A stretch of 64,000 nucleotides of DNA from Nitrospirae bacterium UBA2233 (lineage in GTDB: Bacteria; UBA2233), in contig DDYN01000031.1 of the NCBI GenBank assembly GCA_002347965.1, positions 20,177 through 84,176 of the forward strand, read 5' to 3'. Within the stretch, counting starts at the first letter, position 1, and every line of letters starts with the position of its first letter. Under the pieces are notes generated by a model. It did no database searches and was not told the origin of the DNA. It saw only the letters and a list, made by a program, of their open reading frames with translations. This document shows, in pieces, positions 25,530 through 31,323 of the stretch. The position numbers were made by a program, and so were the translations under genes.

Positions 25530-27029
25530 TTAGAAGCACGTAGAAGAAGAAGCTGGAATGGCCCGATCATGCGCCCATTTCTTGATTGCCTTGATCTGCT
25601 CGAACATCGTGACGGAAAGCGGCACGAAGGAGCCGATCGAACGGTATATGTCGGCCTCGGAAACCTCCCTAGCCTCCGCAAGCCCTTCGATAAGGGCCTG
25701 CTTGACCACCTGCTCGATCTCCGCCCCGCTGAACCCCTTTCCCGCCTCGGCAAGGTTCTCCGCATCAAACCCTGATGGGTTTATGCCAAACCGCTCGAGC
25801 TGGATGCGGAAAATTTCCTTTCGTTCTGCAAAATCCGGCAGATCGAGGAAAAAGACGTCATCAAACCGGCCCCGCCTCAGGATTTCCGCGGGCAACATCA
25901 TGATCCTGTTTGCCGTTGCCACGACAAAGATCCGGGAGCGTCGTTCCTGCATCCACGTAAGAAAGCTCGCCGAAATGCGGGATGAGGAAGACCCGCCCGC
26001 GTCAATCCCCGAGACGAACCCTTTTTCAATCTCATCCACCCACAGGACGCAGGGTTCGAGGTTCTCCAGCTCATCGATCGTCCTAAGAAACACCGTATCG
26101 GGGCTATCCTGATCGCTTTGCTGCGCAAACAACGCCGACAACTCGAGCCTCAAGAGCGGAAGCTCGAAGATGCCCGCGGCAACCTTGGCACAAAGACTCT
26201 TTCCCGTCCCTGCAACGCCCATGAGTAGAACCCCCTTTGGGACAAGAAACTCCCCCGCCGCCTCGGGAGGATGAAAAAACAACGGCCTCCTTTTCACGAG
26301 CCAGCCTTTAAAGCGGTCCAAACCGCCGACTTTCGAGAGGTCGACGTCCGGTTCGACATAACTGAGCGCACCCGACCTTTTGAACACCCGAACCTTCTCT
26401 CTGGCCAACGTCTGGAGAAACGCCGCCTTTGTCTTCCCCGTTGAGAGCGCCAGCCGAAAGGCCAAAAGCGCCTCATGCTCCAACAGTCCTTTCAACACCA
26501 AGCAGGCTTGCCTCTTAGCGTCTTCATCGAGCACTGCTACCAAAGGGTTGGCCGCATTCTCGCCGCTTAGGACGTCTTCAAGAAGGCGCAAAAGCTCCTG
26601 CACCCCGGGCGAGGGAAGAAGCGCCGGAACGGCAAACCGCTCCAACTCTCTGGGCGGATGCTGGAGATCGGACACGACAATGAGCGATTTTTTCTTGGAT
26701 AGCAGCTCCGGGTATGCGCTTCGAACGCGCAGGGCCCAACCAAGAAGGTCTTTCCTGTCCGGCCCGAGGACGACCAGCACGCTGGCCTCGGGATGTCCAA
26801 AAAACCCCTCGAGCACCTCCTCAAACCCGGACACGGAACCGCAGTCTTGGTGGGCATACCTAAGCGTCCCGCCCAACGGCTCGTAGGTCCAGAAAGCACA
26901 GCTTGACCCGATGAGCCGCAGGGCCCTCTGTTCTTCCAGCGTGAAGACCCATACCAACGGGTGGCCAGCCCCTAGAAGCTCCCCGAGCTTCTGAATAAAT
27001 TCCTCGCTACCTTGAGCTAAGATTCTCAT
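25530..27029 (-). CDS. AAA+ ATPase with an uncharacterised ~260-aa N-terminal domain (start at internal MRILAQ...)
   Basis: Walker A GVAGTGKS; Walker B VLWVDEIEKG; second region of homology ATANRIMMLPAEILRRGRFDDVFFLDLP. The N-domain has no recognisable motif. Divergent from the GGDEF sensor gene. Confidence 0.7.
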   Translation of the reverse strand: MRILAQGSEEFIQKLGELLGAGHPLVWVFTLEEQRALRLIGSSCAFWTYEPLGGTLRYAHQDCGSVSGFEEVLEGFFGHPEASVLVVLGPDRKDLLGWALRVRSAYPELLSKKKSLIVVSDLQHPPRELERFAVPALLPSPGVQELLRLLEDVLSGENAANPLVAVLDEDAKRQACLVLKGLLEHEALLAFRLALSTGKTKAAFLQTLAREKVRVFKRSGALSYVEPDVDLSKVGGLDRFKGWLVKRRPLFFHPPEAAGEFLVPKGVLLMGVAGTGKSLCAKVAAGIFELPLLRLELSALFAQQSDQDSPDTVFLRTIDELENLEPCVLWVDEIEKGFVSGIDAGGSSSSRISASFLTWMQERRSRIFVVATANRIMMLPAEILRRGRFDDVFFLDLPDFAERKEIFRIQLERFGINPSGFDAENLAEAGKGFSGAEIEQVVKQALIEGLAEAREVSEADIYRSIGSFVPLSVTMFEQIKAIKKWAHDRAIPASSSTCF

Positions 27030-27088
27030 GGTTCCCTCTGTTTCTATCCTATACCTACGCCTCGTCGTATAGGCAAAAAAACCGGCCC

Positions 27089-29389
27089 ATGAACCGCGAA
27101 AATGCCGTCTTTCATGGTACAATGAACGCCAGGTTGTTCATTTCGGGTCGAAAAGCTATGACCTATGCCTTCCTTCGAAGTGTTCGGTCTAGACTGCTGA
27201 TGGCATTCTTGCTGACCGCGGCAACCCCCCTTTTGTTGCTGAGCATCCTTTTTTACGCCGGCTTCAAAGAAGAGATGCAAGCCATCCAAACCGACACCCG
27301 CAGGCAGGTTTGGGATAGTTTGACCGAACGCGCCCATGAAAGCGTTGAATCCGCCCAGCGGCTCGCACAGACAAAGCTTCTTTATTGGCGAGAAAGGCTG
27401 GAAGCGATCGCATCGCTCGCAAGCAACATTTACCTCCACCCGAAAAACTACAAAAGAGTGCCTCTCTTATGGAGCCCCCTTGACTTTTTCTTCTCGAGTA
27501 ACGAGGGTAACCCCGATGTCGGCCTCATTTACTCCCCATCCTCCAAGAACATCCTTTCTCCCTCCCACTTCTCTAGATTCTCCTACGTTGCCCCCCTTTT
27601 GGCAAGCGTCTATGAAGGCGGAGATATTCAAAACGTCTGGATAGTGCTAAAAAACCGGGCATACATCATCTACCCCGGTGTAAACCACGAGCGGCTTGCT
27701 AAAGAGGGGAAATTGGACCTCAAGACGATTACAACCCCTGAACCTTCGGGCGCTATCACCGATTTTTCCGAAGGTGAGAGCGCACGACTAGACCCAGTTT
27801 ACCTCGATGTTTACGGGGGCGGTTACCTCTCCTGTTTTCGCGTTCCGATTCGTTCGGCTAACAAAACTCTAGGGGCCGTTGCGATCGACATCGTGCCGGA
27901 AAAGCTCCTGGAGGCGTTCGACGTCGAGATGCTGATCGACCCAAAAGGCCATATTATTGCCAAAGGAAGGCCTGTCCGGGGAGGGGTGGACCCTTCTCTT
28001 CGCCGTAAAGCAGGAACACCGTTAACCCTTAAGGATTCCGGGCTCAAGCTTGTGGATGGGGTTAAATACCAACAGGGCCGATTCGTCGCTCTCAAGCCGC
28101 TAAAGGGGCTTGGAGCTGGATGGTGGGTTTCCAAGGTCGAGGACCCAAAGGCTCTGTCGAAAGGACTCTTTGACCCCACGTTCCTCAAACGCTCGAGAGA
28201 AAGGTTTTTAGCCTACATCCGGAACGTCTTCATCCTCGCGCTGTTCTTGTCTTTCGTACTGACGTTCACTATTAGCGGCCGCATTCTAGAGATGTTCGAG
28301 CGGATCCGAAGGAACCTCCTGCTTATCGCCGAGCGCAAGTTCGAAAGGGTACCCAGGTCCAAACAAGCCGGCCGGAAAGACGGGGATGAACTCTCTAAGC
28401 TTCTTGCCATTACTTCGGAGTGCGCGACCCTCATCTCTAAACAGATTCAAGACATCGAGGCTTTTTCAAGCCTCGATCCTTTAACCAGGCTGTTCAACCG
28501 TAGGCCCATCTACGCGATCATGGCATCAAAACCGAGAAAAGGCGCCATGGTCTTGCTAGACATCGACCACTTTAAGCACGTCAACGACACCTATGGGCAC
28601 GCGCTCGGCGATGCCGTGATCGAGCACATTGGCCAGGCTCTTCGGGCAAACACACGCGACGGCGACATGGCGGTTCGCTGGGGCGGGGAAGAATTCCTCG
28701 TTTACCTTCCGCGCACGACCAAAGAAGATGCCGCGCTCATCGCAGAAAGAATAAGACGCAAGGTGGCCCTAGATCCGGTCGAGGGCATTTTCGTCACGAT
28801 AAGCCTTGGCGTGGCGGATGGAACGCTCAGCCACCAGTTGATCAAACAAGCAGACGAGGCGCTGTACAAAGCCAAGCAGGCTGGAAGAAACTTGGTCATG
28901 GTCTACGAAGACGGCAATTTGCTCGAGGTTTCGAGGGCACTCCATAACATCTTGGTTTCTTCGGCCTACTTGCCCAAAAGGATAGGTGACGAACAAGGCA
29001 CCCCTAGGCCTTCCTTGTGGCTTCGAATTCCTGTAGTCTTTCAGCTTGGACAAGCACTATCCGTACTCAAAAAGCTGGGATACCGTCTAAACGTGATCAA
29101 CGGGGTTTTTCCGGACATACCTATTGAGCAGCTCAAACAAGGCCCATTTTTTTGTGAGCGATGCAACCAAGAAGGCTTAGGTGTAGGCGTTTTGCTCGTG
29201 GATAACGCCGGAGTCGTCTCTATGCCTAAGGGCTTCTCGCTTCAAAGCTGCGAGCCTCCAAGCCAGGACGGTTCGACGAACATTTTATTGATGAACATTT
29301 TAAAGGACATCCTCGAAGCCCACGGGTTCATCATGCCAAACCCAAGCCAGCCGTGGCACTTTGAGCTCCCCAACATGGATCAGCTCTAA
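27089..29389 (+). CDS. Membrane-anchored sensor diguanylate cyclase (TM, periplasmic sensor, HAMP-like region, GGDEF) with a degenerate VanY/peptidase-M15-like C-terminal tail. The start could instead be 27122 or 27158.
   Basis: TM helix LLMAFLLTAATPLLLLSILFYAG; GGDEF domain with RWGGEEFLVYLP active-site motif and RLFNRRPIY... I-site context. After the GGDEF there are ~160 aa ending ...LKDILEAHGFIMPNPSQPWHFELPN, resembling the YGFI..YP...EPWH.RYVG C-terminus of M15B enzymes. Confidence 0.8.
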   Translation: MNRENAVFHGTMNARLFISGRKAMTYAFLRSVRSRLLMAFLLTAATPLLLLSILFYAGFKEEMQAIQTDTRRQVWDSLTERAHESVESAQRLAQTKLLYWRERLEAIASLASNIYLHPKNYKRVPLLWSPLDFFFSSNEGNPDVGLIYSPSSKNILSPSHFSRFSYVAPLLASVYEGGDIQNVWIVLKNRAYIIYPGVNHERLAKEGKLDLKTITTPEPSGAITDFSEGESARLDPVYLDVYGGGYLSCFRVPIRSANKTLGAVAIDIVPEKLLEAFDVEMLIDPKGHIIAKGRPVRGGVDPSLRRKAGTPLTLKDSGLKLVDGVKYQQGRFVALKPLKGLGAGWWVSKVEDPKALSKGLFDPTFLKRSRERFLAYIRNVFILALFLSFVLTFTISGRILEMFERIRRNLLLIAERKFERVPRSKQAGRKDGDELSKLLAITSECATLISKQIQDIEAFSSLDPLTRLFNRRPIYAIMASKPRKGAMVLLDIDHFKHVNDTYGHALGDAVIEHIGQALRANTRDGDMAVRWGGEEFLVYLPRTTKEDAALIAERIRRKVALDPVEGIFVTISLGVADGTLSHQLIKQADEALYKAKQAGRNLVMVYEDGNLLEVSRALHNILVSSAYLPKRIGDEQGTPRPSLWLRIPVVFQLGQALSVLKKLGYRLNVINGVFPDIPIEQLKQGPFFCERCNQEGLGVGVLLVDNAGVVSMPKGFSLQSCEPPSQDGSTNILLMNILKDILEAHGFIMPNPSQPWHFELPNMDQL

Positions 29390-30411
29390 TGGCACGGCTT
29401 GTTCTGACCGTCAACCTTTGTACCGTAGCGGAGAATATAAGGCGGATCGCTCGCGCCACAGAGCGCCGGCTGATCGCCGTGCTGAAGGCCGACGCCTACG
29501 GCATGGGGGCAACAAGCCTGGCCCGCCAGCTCGAAGCAATGACGGAAGTGTTCGGCTTTGCCGTTTCGTGTCCGCTTGAAGGGGTCGTATTGCGGAAGGC
29601 TAAGATCGTCAAGCCCATCCTCGTGCTTACGGGAATCTTGCCTGGCGAGCTAAACTTAATCGAACGTTGGCGTCTTACCCCGGTTGTTTCGGACCCGGCG
29701 CATCTCCTTACGCTAAAAGACAGCACCCTCCCCTACCACGTCAAGTATGATACTGGAATGGGTAGGCTCGGTTTCTTGTCCCCTCAAAACCACGACCCTA
29801 GAATCTGCGGCGTCATGTCGCACCTTTCCTCGGCTGGCACGGATTCGGACTACACGAAAGAACAAATTGAGCGGTTCGAGGGCTTTTTAGGAGCACACGG
29901 CCCGCTTCCCTTCGTCCACCTGCAAAACTCCGCGGGTATCGCCTTCAAGGTACCTCGGGCAAACCTTGTACGCGTAGGGCTAGCGATGTTTGGCGAACAG
30001 CCTGCCGAGCCGTTCCCGGTGCAGCTCTCTTACGCCCTAGAACTCAAGGCTAGAGTCGTTTCGGTAAAGACGCTCGCCAAGGGCTCGAGCGTTTCCTACA
30101 ACCGCTCGTGCGTCCTTTCAGAAGACGTCCAGATTGCCGTGGTGAACATCGGTTATGCCGACGGGCTTACGAGGGCCCTGTCCAACAAGGGATTCTTGCT
30201 TGTGCATGGCAAGCCGGCCCGGGTCCTGGGGGACATTACGATGGACATGGTGCTTATCGATACAACGGGAATGGATGTGCGCGTGGGAGATTGGGTTGTC
30301 GTAGTCGACGCATCCCAAACTTTCGGAGCCCTGGCAAGGCTTGCAGGAACAATACCCTACGAGCTAATGTGCAACCTATCTTCAAGGACAAGGCGTGTCT
30401 ACAGGCGCTGA
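29389..30411 (+). CDS. alr: Alanine racemase (short, 340 aa)
   Basis: PLP-lysine motif AVLKADAYGMG near the N-terminus; C-terminal beta-domain. The start overlaps the upstream stop as TAATG (29387-29391). Confidence 0.85.
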   Translation: MARLVLTVNLCTVAENIRRIARATERRLIAVLKADAYGMGATSLARQLEAMTEVFGFAVSCPLEGVVLRKAKIVKPILVLTGILPGELNLIERWRLTPVVSDPAHLLTLKDSTLPYHVKYDTGMGRLGFLSPQNHDPRICGVMSHLSSAGTDSDYTKEQIERFEGFLGAHGPLPFVHLQNSAGIAFKVPRANLVRVGLAMFGEQPAEPFPVQLSYALELKARVVSVKTLAKGSSVSYNRSCVLSEDVQIAVVNIGYADGLTRALSNKGFLLVHGKPARVLGDITMDMVLIDTTGMDVRVGDWVVVVDASQTFGALARLAGTIPYELMCNLSSRTRRVYRR

Positions 30412-30837
30412 AACAGCCCCCCCGTTCTCGGACATCCCCCTGTACGCCGCATCCAACAGGCCGTTCACGAACGCGGGAGATTGCTCAGCACCAAACACCT
30501 TGGCAAGCTCGATCGCCTCGTCAATCGCCACCTTGGGAGGCGTTTTGGTGCGCTCCGGATAGGTCAGCTCGAACAGGGCCAGCCTAAGAATACACAGGTC
30601 GACCAGGCCGATCCGGTGTAGCGGCCAGTTGCGGGAAATTCCCCCGATCGTACAGTCGAGGGCCTGCTTGTTGTCGATGGTACCATGGACCAAAAGCTCG
30701 AAAAACGGGTCTTCGTCTTCTTTCGGGAAAAAGGCCTTCAGGGTACGCTCAACGAACCCCCCCAAGTCGGCCTCCTTCGCGACCGTCAGCCCGTAAAGCA
30801 GCTGGAAGGCCTGAATGCGGGCTTTGTGCCTTGTCAC
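30382..30837 (-). CDS. nusB: Transcription antitermination factor NusB
   Basis: 151 aa; MTRHKARIQAFQLLYG..., all-helical NusB signature. The 3' end overlaps the convergent alr by 30 nt. Confidence 0.9.
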   Translation of the reverse strand: MTRHKARIQAFQLLYGLTVAKEADLGGFVERTLKAFFPKEDEDPFFELLVHGTIDNKQALDCTIGGISRNWPLHRIGLVDLCILRLALFELTYPERTKTPPKVAIDEAIELAKVFGAEQSPAFVNGLLDAAYRGMSENGGAVSAPVDTPCP

Positions 30838-31323
30838 CTAAGCCAAGCCATCCTTGAGGTGTTTTTTAAGCGTTGCCATTTCTACGGCGGCAAGCGCCGC
30901 TTGGTACCCCTTGTTCCCATGCTTAGAGCCGGAGCGCTCGATGGCCTGTTCGAGCGAGTCTGCCGTAACGATGCCGAACGCTACTGGAAGCCGAAATTCG
31001 CGCATCACCTGACCAATGCCCCGGGTCACCTCGGCGCTGATATACTCAAAATGTGGCGTTGCACCGCGAACAAGCACTCCAAGCGCGATAATGGCATCGA
31101 ACCTGCCGGTCTGAGCAAGCTCTCTAACATAAAGCGGGACTTCATAGCTGCCTGGCACCTTCACCACGACAACGTCTTCCTTACTGACTCGGCACTGCCT
31201 TAAGGCCTCGAGGGCACCTTCGAGCAGGCGAAGCGAGAACAGCTCGTTGAACCTGGAGGCCACGAGCCCGAATTTTAGGCCTTCCCCGCTAAGATGGCCT
31301 TCAAACGTCTTTACCGTCTCCAT
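30838..31323 (-). CDS. ribH: 6,7-dimethyl-8-ribityllumazine synthase
   Basis: 161 aa; [11 protein letters not shown]..., [16 protein letters not shown] motifs. Confidence 0.9.

Follow-up and report, generated by a model that had tools for sequence, protein, structure and literature searches.

Why does a predicted sensor diguanylate cyclase continue far beyond its catalytic GGDEF domain, and why does that continuation end on the start codon of an alanine racemase gene? The question is raised by a 64,000-nucleotide (nt) stretch of DNA from Nitrospirae bacterium UBA2233 (contig DDYN01000031.1), referred to here as the window, in which a single open reading frame (ORF) encodes a putative synthase of the second messenger cyclic di-guanosine monophosphate (c-di-GMP) together with a long C-terminal tail, and is followed directly by alr. 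A sequence-only reading of the window had taken the tail for a degenerate VanY/M15-like domain, possibly recognizing D-Ala-D-Ala, that feeds information on cell-wall precursors into c-di-GMP signaling. Comparison with related loci, as described below, indicates instead that the tail travels with alr and not with the cyclase, and its sequence points to a probable origin from dipeptidases of the VanX/DdpX type.

Conservation of the tail with alr

The sequence-only reading had correctly recognized a complete GGDEF domain (with a GGEEF motif) followed by a long tail. The domain is matched by Pfam PF00990 at an E-value of 1.7e-36 (125.9 bits, against a cutoff of 23.8), as the sole Pfam domain in the protein, and by the NCBIfam model TIGR00254 (134 bits, cutoff 37.4); the frame then runs for a further 165 aa to its end at ...AHGFIMPNPSQPWHFELPNMDQL*, four residues more than had been quoted. 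The overlap of this ORF with alr holds as well, with the TAA of the one and the ATG of the other sharing one base (TAATGG), and the racemase is identified both by TIGR00492 (237 bits, cutoff 168) and by Pfam matches to Ala_racemase_N (PF01168) and Ala_racemase_C (PF00842). The same 1-nt TAATG overlap was found in the related loci L001, L002, L005-7, and L012/13, and the more distant L004 and L010 show TGA, 4 nt, and ATG, such that overlap or abutment of the tail ORF with alr is conserved across the relatives.

Alignment of the related loci to positions 26800-29500 of the window revealed a different fate for the cyclase. In L002 the cyclase is of full length (92% at the nucleotide level) and frameshifted, with the tail kept; this assembly also splits serA, an aminotransferase gene, and the AAA gene. 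In L001, the start, a portion of the sensor, and nearly the whole GGDEF domain are gone through three deletions (185, 224, and 820 nt), two deletions (505 and 380 nt) are present in L012/L013, from two metagenomes, and L014 carries a single in-frame deletion of 897 nt, each time with the tail kept. In L004, the last ~45 aa of the GGDEF domain remain in front of a whole tail. L001, L012/13, L014, and L004 have thus lost most of the sensor and/or the GGDEF domain and retain a complete tail ORF against alr. The tail itself is reduced to in-frame fragments in L005-7 (three metagenomes), where the cyclase is deleted (three deletions in all) and an in-frame 37-codon deletion lies within the tail, and in L010 (related to L004; alr 68% identical), where a sensor fragment is fused directly to a tail remnant comprising its last 40 aa. 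Among the loci found, there is no relative in which the cyclase is kept without the tail. The GGDEF-tail-alr arrangement put forward in the sequence-only reading is therefore conserved in part: alr directly follows the tail in every tail-bearing relative, whereas the three-part arrangement is intact, among the loci found, only in this window. Because the relatives delete the sensor and/or the GGDEF domain and nearly always keep the tail ORF against alr, the tail appears to be tied to alr rather than to the cyclase; judged from these alignments, the conserved unit is tail-alr and not GGDEF-tail.

Closely related populations show at least six different architectures, each with between one and three deletions. 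The cyclase gene (window 27087-28984) is thus a deletion hot spot, and the AAA gene, alr, and the rib operon that flank it are intact and conserved. Some of the breakpoints nearly coincide across lineages, at ~27775-27778 and ~28038-28047. An assembly artefact was considered and rejected, since the microhomology at the junctions (0-3 nt) is too short for k-mer collapse, and since one variant was recovered from two separate metagenomes and another from three. With junctions this short and with internal repeats in the gene limited to pairs of 12-15 nt, a chance level, the deletions are, by their sequence signature, genuine illegitimate deletions that occurred independently in sister lineages. 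These variants would amount to a natural dissection of the locus, in which the sensor and cyclase are dispensable and the tail-alr junction is not.

The tail was found to be restricted to very few sequences. A word-indexed search of 5.8 billion proteins returned five close relatives (58-93% identity), none with a Pfam domain, and an exhaustive phmmer search of 1.84 billion representatives returned two clusters only, P0005 and the 70-aa fragment P0006 (47% identity), and no bridge sequences from the tail to M15D. Scans of genomes and metagenomes with tail patterns yielded one contig of a metagenome-assembled genome (MAG), Nitrospirae bacterium WOFB21, listed twice, which starts within the tail. 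One and the same sequence was deposited both as a MAG contig (L003, WOZJ01000018.1) and as a metagenome contig (L008, WOYI010906093.1); its first position lies within the tail, corresponding to aa 635 of the protein encoded in the window. The assembly broke at the variable cyclase gene, which would fit mixed alleles in that sample.

The ratio of nonsynonymous to synonymous substitutions (dN/dS; Nei-Gojobori) of the tail, measured against L001, L002, and L003, is 0.27-0.33, the comparison values being 0.18 for alr, 0.26-0.28 for ribE, 0.43 for the GGDEF domain, and 0.30-0.43 for the sensor; such ratios average over history, and hence reflect past selection and cannot prove present function. Because the ratio is low and because the frame is open in the L004/L010 lineage, in which the tail is 47% identical and alr ~68% identical, the tail has evidently been a translated sequence under constraint over a long period, with moderate purifying selection.

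Relation of the tail to VanX and DdpX

The proposed relation of the tail to the M15/LAS peptidases was supported in part, with VanX and DdpX (MEROPS family M15D, PF01427), and not VanY, as its nearest members. In NCBIfam, the sole match to the tail is DdpX (NF007557), at an E-value of 0.035, a library-wide value that takes all 18,950 models into account, and the match recurs for a second member of the tail family. For profile comparisons with hhalign, the tail was represented by an 8-member alignment including translations from L003, L004, and L010, and M15D by VanX relatives, E. coli DdpX, four further diverse M15D proteins, and VanX-M; the VanX sequence used was confirmed to be identical to that of PDB entry 1R44, and the sequences of VanX-M and of VanY-A, which was compared separately, were taken from plasmid records. 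Against a VanX-dominated profile, P was 3.6e-4 over 104 columns, with a score (30.6) that none of 1000 column shuffles reached (maximum 26.8). Against the diverse M15D profile, the score was 34.3 (Prob 63%, P 7e-5) over 105 collinear columns, spanning tail aa 654-763 and DdpX 51-171, and none of 800 shuffles reached it (maximum 23.6; Gumbel fit p ~8e-6). Significance was obtained only with family profiles, a single VanX sequence giving an insignificant P of 0.17. MAFFT, run independently on the tail and VanX sequences, arrived at the register that hhalign had given for the blocks.

The VanY/LdcB D,D-/L,D-carboxypeptidases (M15B, PF02557) share with the tail the general LAS elements, namely H..D and the C-terminal GF...ExWH. 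VanY was nevertheless rejected as the relative, with hhalign aligning only 10 residues of VanY-A (P 0.48). The spacing from GF to (E/Q)xWH is 6 residues in the tail and 5 in DdpX/VanX, as opposed to 16 from GF(ILRYP) to EPWH in VanY, and the tail has no match to PF02557.

The likeness to VanX (1R44) and DdpX (E. coli b1488) comprises a helix-strand element (..LGYxLxVxxG..P), an SxHxxGxAxDLxL..D.xG...MG.xF block, and then a helix-GF-loop-ExWH[FY]xL block, which are collinear in the tail too and near their native spacing (99 aa in the tail, 110 aa in DdpX); a cytoplasmic location and a D-alanine metabolism neighborhood are also common to both. Unlike VanX and DdpX, however, which are free-standing, the tail is fused to another protein. 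It also differs in being without the N-terminal ~40 residues of VanX, in a shortened segment after the first strand, and in scoring far below the family cutoffs (13.7 vs 176 bits for NF007557, and no Pfam match).

Further differences concern the active site. In VanX, according to the published work on that enzyme, the zinc ligands are His116, Asp123, and His184, the catalytic residue is Glu181, and the transition-state arginine is Arg71. The zinc site, which had been described as loosely matched, aligns as SSHSRGSAID with RCNQEGLGVG, such that H116 corresponds to N693 and D123 to G700; the Asp of ...LLVD, to which attention had been drawn, has its counterpart instead in the Asp of the beta-hairpin that follows. 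The alignment of EWWH with QPWH confirms the suspected replacement of the catalytic Glu by Gln (E181 to Q754) and retains H184 as H757. Arg71, the arginine of the YRP motif, corresponds to F674 in hhalign and falls inside a 25-residue deletion in MAFFT. Four of the five VanX active-site and substrate-site residues are replaced in the tail, with H757 as the only survivor, although the distant relative L004 has kept a His at the H116 position (HCHQEG) while sharing the Gly and Gln replacements. Because His116, Asp123, Glu181, and Arg71 have been lost, the tail as predicted here cannot be a canonical zinc dipeptidase, and its substrate pocket is heavily altered. Of the non-catalytic, ligand-binding domain envisaged in the sequence-only reading, the first attribute thus agrees with the alignments, whereas ligand sensing is unsupported.

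If the homology holds, a GGDEF domain followed by a catalytically dead M15D peptidase is a new, previously undescribed architecture, confined to one narrow, uncultivated lineage of Nitrospirota. A literature search returned no paper linking GGDEF proteins to VanX/DdpX domains or to D-Ala-D-Ala dipeptidase.

Origin and role of the tail

Whether the tail descends from M15D at all must be decided between homology and a fortuitous likeness, in which the tail would be a lineage-specific orphan extension, unrelated or without a stable fold, ending in a short WHFELP-like motif. Several results weigh against homology. Pfam PF01427 does not match the tail even at an E-value of 10, and no M15 family, PF02557 included, came up at E-values up to 10 when the tail, its C-terminal 71 aa, or either of two homologues was searched against Pfam. 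Searches of all PDB sequences with phmmer and with the family profile missed VanX and gave noise only (E >0.2). Most of the hhalign signal stems from the last 28 residues (24.7; none of 300 shuffles), and the preceding part, which makes up the N-terminal two thirds of the aligned region, falls short of significance when taken alone (15.9, matched by 23 of 300 shuffles, p ~0.08). AlphaFold models were of low confidence, both with the 6-sequence family alignment (predicted local distance difference test, pLDDT, 35.4) and with a hybrid alignment of tail and VanX sequences (43.2), an input that is circular, and Foldseek searches of both models against the PDB gave no match at E <= 0.001. In addition, the hypothesis was picked after the motif had been seen, and the tail forms just two clusters among 1.84 billion proteins. 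A chance likeness, on the other hand, would have to explain why the single match among the 18,950 models is DdpX at a corrected E-value, why the hhalign score rises with the diversity of the target and exceeds all 800-1000 shuffles, why hhalign and MAFFT alike place four blocks in collinear order and close to their native spacing, why even the N-terminal part alone aligns best in that same collinear register, and why the functional neighbor is alr. On balance, true M15D ancestry of the tail is considered likely from its sequence, and a fortuitous resemblance fairly unlikely.

The reading favored here, with moderate confidence, is that the tail is the fossil of a ddpX-like gene, attached to a dispensable cyclase and retained as part of a tail-alr unit. 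A ddpX-like gene would once have sat directly upstream of alr, the two forming a sensible catabolic pair that converts D-Ala-D-Ala into two D-Ala and then into L-Ala. This gene would have lost its activity and become an in-frame 3′ extension of the neighboring cyclase gene, so that the last ~110 residues of the present protein would be diverged VanX/DdpX remains, with the secondary-structure-forming blocks still in their original order. The open frame of the tail would bring ribosomes, and probably also the transcript, to the overlapping start of alr, and this translational coupling would be the reason for its retention; given the moderate purifying selection, the tail may also keep a non-catalytic role as a protein. 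The sensor-cyclase part would be dispensable, being lost independently in sister lineages. If the homology holds, the locus offers a natural example of an enzyme gene turned into a pseudoenzyme appendage that persists by abutting an essential gene.

Other observations count against this reconstruction. No relative with an intact, separate ddpX between the cyclase and alr was found, and the history of the fusion is therefore conjecture. In L009 (alr 80% identical), the contig reaches 119 nt upstream of alr and has no tail in those 119 nt; expression of alr therefore does not strictly require the tail. Furthermore, the sensor remnants of L001, which are obviously dead, also have a dN/dS below 1 (0.43).

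Two explanations would give the tail a function as a protein. According to the idea closest to the sequence-only reading, the tail is a functional, non-catalytic pseudo-dipeptidase that senses cytoplasmic D-Ala-D-Ala or a cell-wall precursor and modulates the cyclase, thereby linking the precursor pool and D-Ala supply to c-di-GMP. Its relation to M15D, the purifying selection on it, its adjacency to alr in all relatives, and its predicted cytoplasmic location behind a cytoplasmic GGDEF domain, as in VanX/DdpX, would all suit such a sensor, as would the position of E. coli ddpX immediately downstream of dosC-dosP. All four of the replaced residues, however, belong to the zinc and substrate site of VanX, and the segment of 25 residues around Arg71 is shortened or deleted; moreover, the relatives lose the cyclase and keep the tail, and a regulatory input domain would not be expected to survive the loss of the output domain that it controls. 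With a single intact copy known, an extremely narrow distribution, and no precedent in the literature searched, this explanation appears quite improbable, and the claim that D-Ala-D-Ala sensing feeds c-di-GMP signaling was not sustained. The broader version, in which the dead VanX/DdpX-like domain is a pseudoenzyme receptor that binds D-Ala-D-Ala or D-Ala and couples the precursor pool to c-di-GMP synthesis and/or to Alr, is very improbable; if true, this would make it the first sensory domain of M15 origin in second-messenger signaling. The general idea that c-di-GMP enzymes sense cell-wall precursors is thus tempered by the narrow lineage and by the lost binding-site residues.

Alternatively, the true product may be a free-standing tail protein (~160-210 aa) that acts together with Alr and is translated from an internal start, for instance M604 (MVYEDG), its in-frame junction to the cyclase in the window being incidental. 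Separate ORFs of 158-208 aa do exist in L001, L012/13, L014, and L004, where they start within or just after the last GGDEF helix, and the unrelated deletion lineages L012/13 and L004 both keep the ~45-aa C-terminus of the GGDEF domain together with the tail. A scan for promoters and terminators, in contrast, gave results near the shuffle expectation, with no site before the tail, M604, or alr, and the internal deletions of the tail in L005-7 and L010 also speak against a free tail protein; this explanation is considered improbable.

Features of the locus and comparison with known systems

The features of the locus are compiled in Table 1.

Table 1. Positions in the window of the cyclase-tail ORF, its predicted parts, and alr.
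Feature	Position	Strand	Basis or remark
Cyclase-tail ORF	27089..29389	+	766 aa, first ATG listed; M12 or M24 could be the true start
Predicted transmembrane segment 1, aa 36-58 (LLMAFLLTAATPLLLLSILFYAG)	27194..27262	+	Kyte-Doolittle 19-mer scores >1.6
Presumed periplasmic region, ~315 aa, between both transmembrane segments	27263..28207	+	
Predicted transmembrane segment 2, aa 374-400	28208..28288	+	Kyte-Doolittle
GGDEF domain, aa 461-601	28469..28891	+	Pfam PF00990 and TIGR00254
DxDxFKxxND motif (DIDHFKHVND), aa 491-500	28559-28588	+	Direct inspection
I-site RxxD (RDGD), aa 523-526	28655-28666	+	Five residues before GGEEF
A-site GGEEF, aa 532-536	28682-28696	+	Direct inspection
C-terminal tail, aa 606-766	28904..29386	+	Lineage-restricted sequence
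Candidate degenerate VanX/DdpX-like (M15D) core, aa 654-763	29048..29377	+	NCBIfam, hhalign, MAFFT
LGYRLNVINGVFP	29075-29113	+	Aligned to GYGLLLWDGYRP of VanX/DdpX
RCNQEGLGVGVLLVD	29159-29203	+	Aligned to SSHSRGSAIDLTL..D of VanX/DdpX
SMPKGF	29219-29236	+	Aligned to VPMGSRF
15-nt tandem duplication (GACGAACATTTTA / GATGAACATTTTA)	about 29275-29305	+	Yields TNILL-MNILK
ILKDILEAHGF...QPWHFELP	29297-29371	+	Aligned to LRSIMENSGF...EWWHYVL
TAATG stop/start overlap of cyclase-tail ORF with alr	29387..29391	+	TAATGG; TAA 29387-29389, ATG 29389-29391
alr, 340-aa alanine racemase	29389..30411	+	Pfam, TIGR00492, pyridoxal phosphate-lysine motif AVLKADAYGMG

From its sequence, the protein is a membrane diguanylate cyclase with two transmembrane segments. 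Both the A-site (GGEEF) and the inhibitory I-site (RxxD) are intact, and c-di-GMP synthesis should therefore persist; the gene product is probably active as a cyclase. The periplasmic region belongs to no Pfam family, and a search of PDB sequences gave no match to it below an E-value of 0.05. The start of the protein is uncertain (M12 at 27122 and M24 at 27158 are the candidate internal starts) because positions 27089-27122 overlap the longest version of a divergent AAA-ATPase ORF. Read from its first TTG, that ORF (25530-27122, minus strand) reaches 34 nt into the cyclase ORF; more likely it begins at MRILAQG (~27030), which would leave only ~60 bp of intergenic space shared with the cyclase. 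A terminator-like hairpin with a T-run lies on the minus strand at 27096-27083, exactly at the AAA/cyclase start region. An Rfam scan of 26000-31000 gave no match.

Through the tandem duplication, the helix that precedes the GF...WH motif is five residues longer (TNILL before MNILK). The insertion is present only in the window and in P0001, and is absent from P0002-4, L003, and L004.

Membrane-bound sensor cyclases such as YfiN/DgcN and DgcQ likewise have two transmembrane segments flanking a large periplasmic region and a cytoplasmic GGDEF domain with GGEEF and RxxD. The window protein differs from them in that its periplasmic region matches no known sensor family and in that its GGDEF domain is followed by the M15D-derived domain, an architecture not found in the literature searched.

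The dosC-dosP-ddpXABCDF region of E. coli also has genes for a diguanylate cyclase and a D-Ala-D-Ala dipeptidase on one strand, within ~2.7 kb. In strain K-12 (L015; NC_000913.3, 1562495-1567140), ddpX is situated 257 bp downstream of dosC-dosP, which encode a diguanylate cyclase and a c-di-GMP phosphodiesterase, a second, independent case in which c-di-GMP enzymes are encoded close to an M15D gene. In contrast to the window, however, the E. coli genes are separate and in separate operons, DdpX is active, and no alr is adjacent, so that the likeness may be coincidental. In a Dub-seq screen, ddpX fragments scored alongside c-di-GMP phosphodiesterases for resistance to phage N4 (PMC7553319).

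At its other end, alr (plus strand) overlaps convergently by 30 nt (30382-30411) with the 3′ end of nusB, the last gene of a minus-strand ribD-ribE-ribBA-ribH-nusB cluster, and the same overlap was observed in L001 (7470-7499), L012, and L009. In L011, a locus with a ~50%-identical alr outside the clade of the window gene, neither the cyclase nor the tail is found upstream. The relatives of alr form a small clade of their own (91%, 80%, and 68% identity), beyond which identity drops abruptly to ~50%, in proteins that are almost all from Aquificota (Thermocrinis, Aquifex, Hydrogenivirga); the only named genome among the relatives is annotated as Nitrospirae. Such a pattern points to a thermophilic lineage that has been poorly sampled, or else to an ancient transfer of alr.

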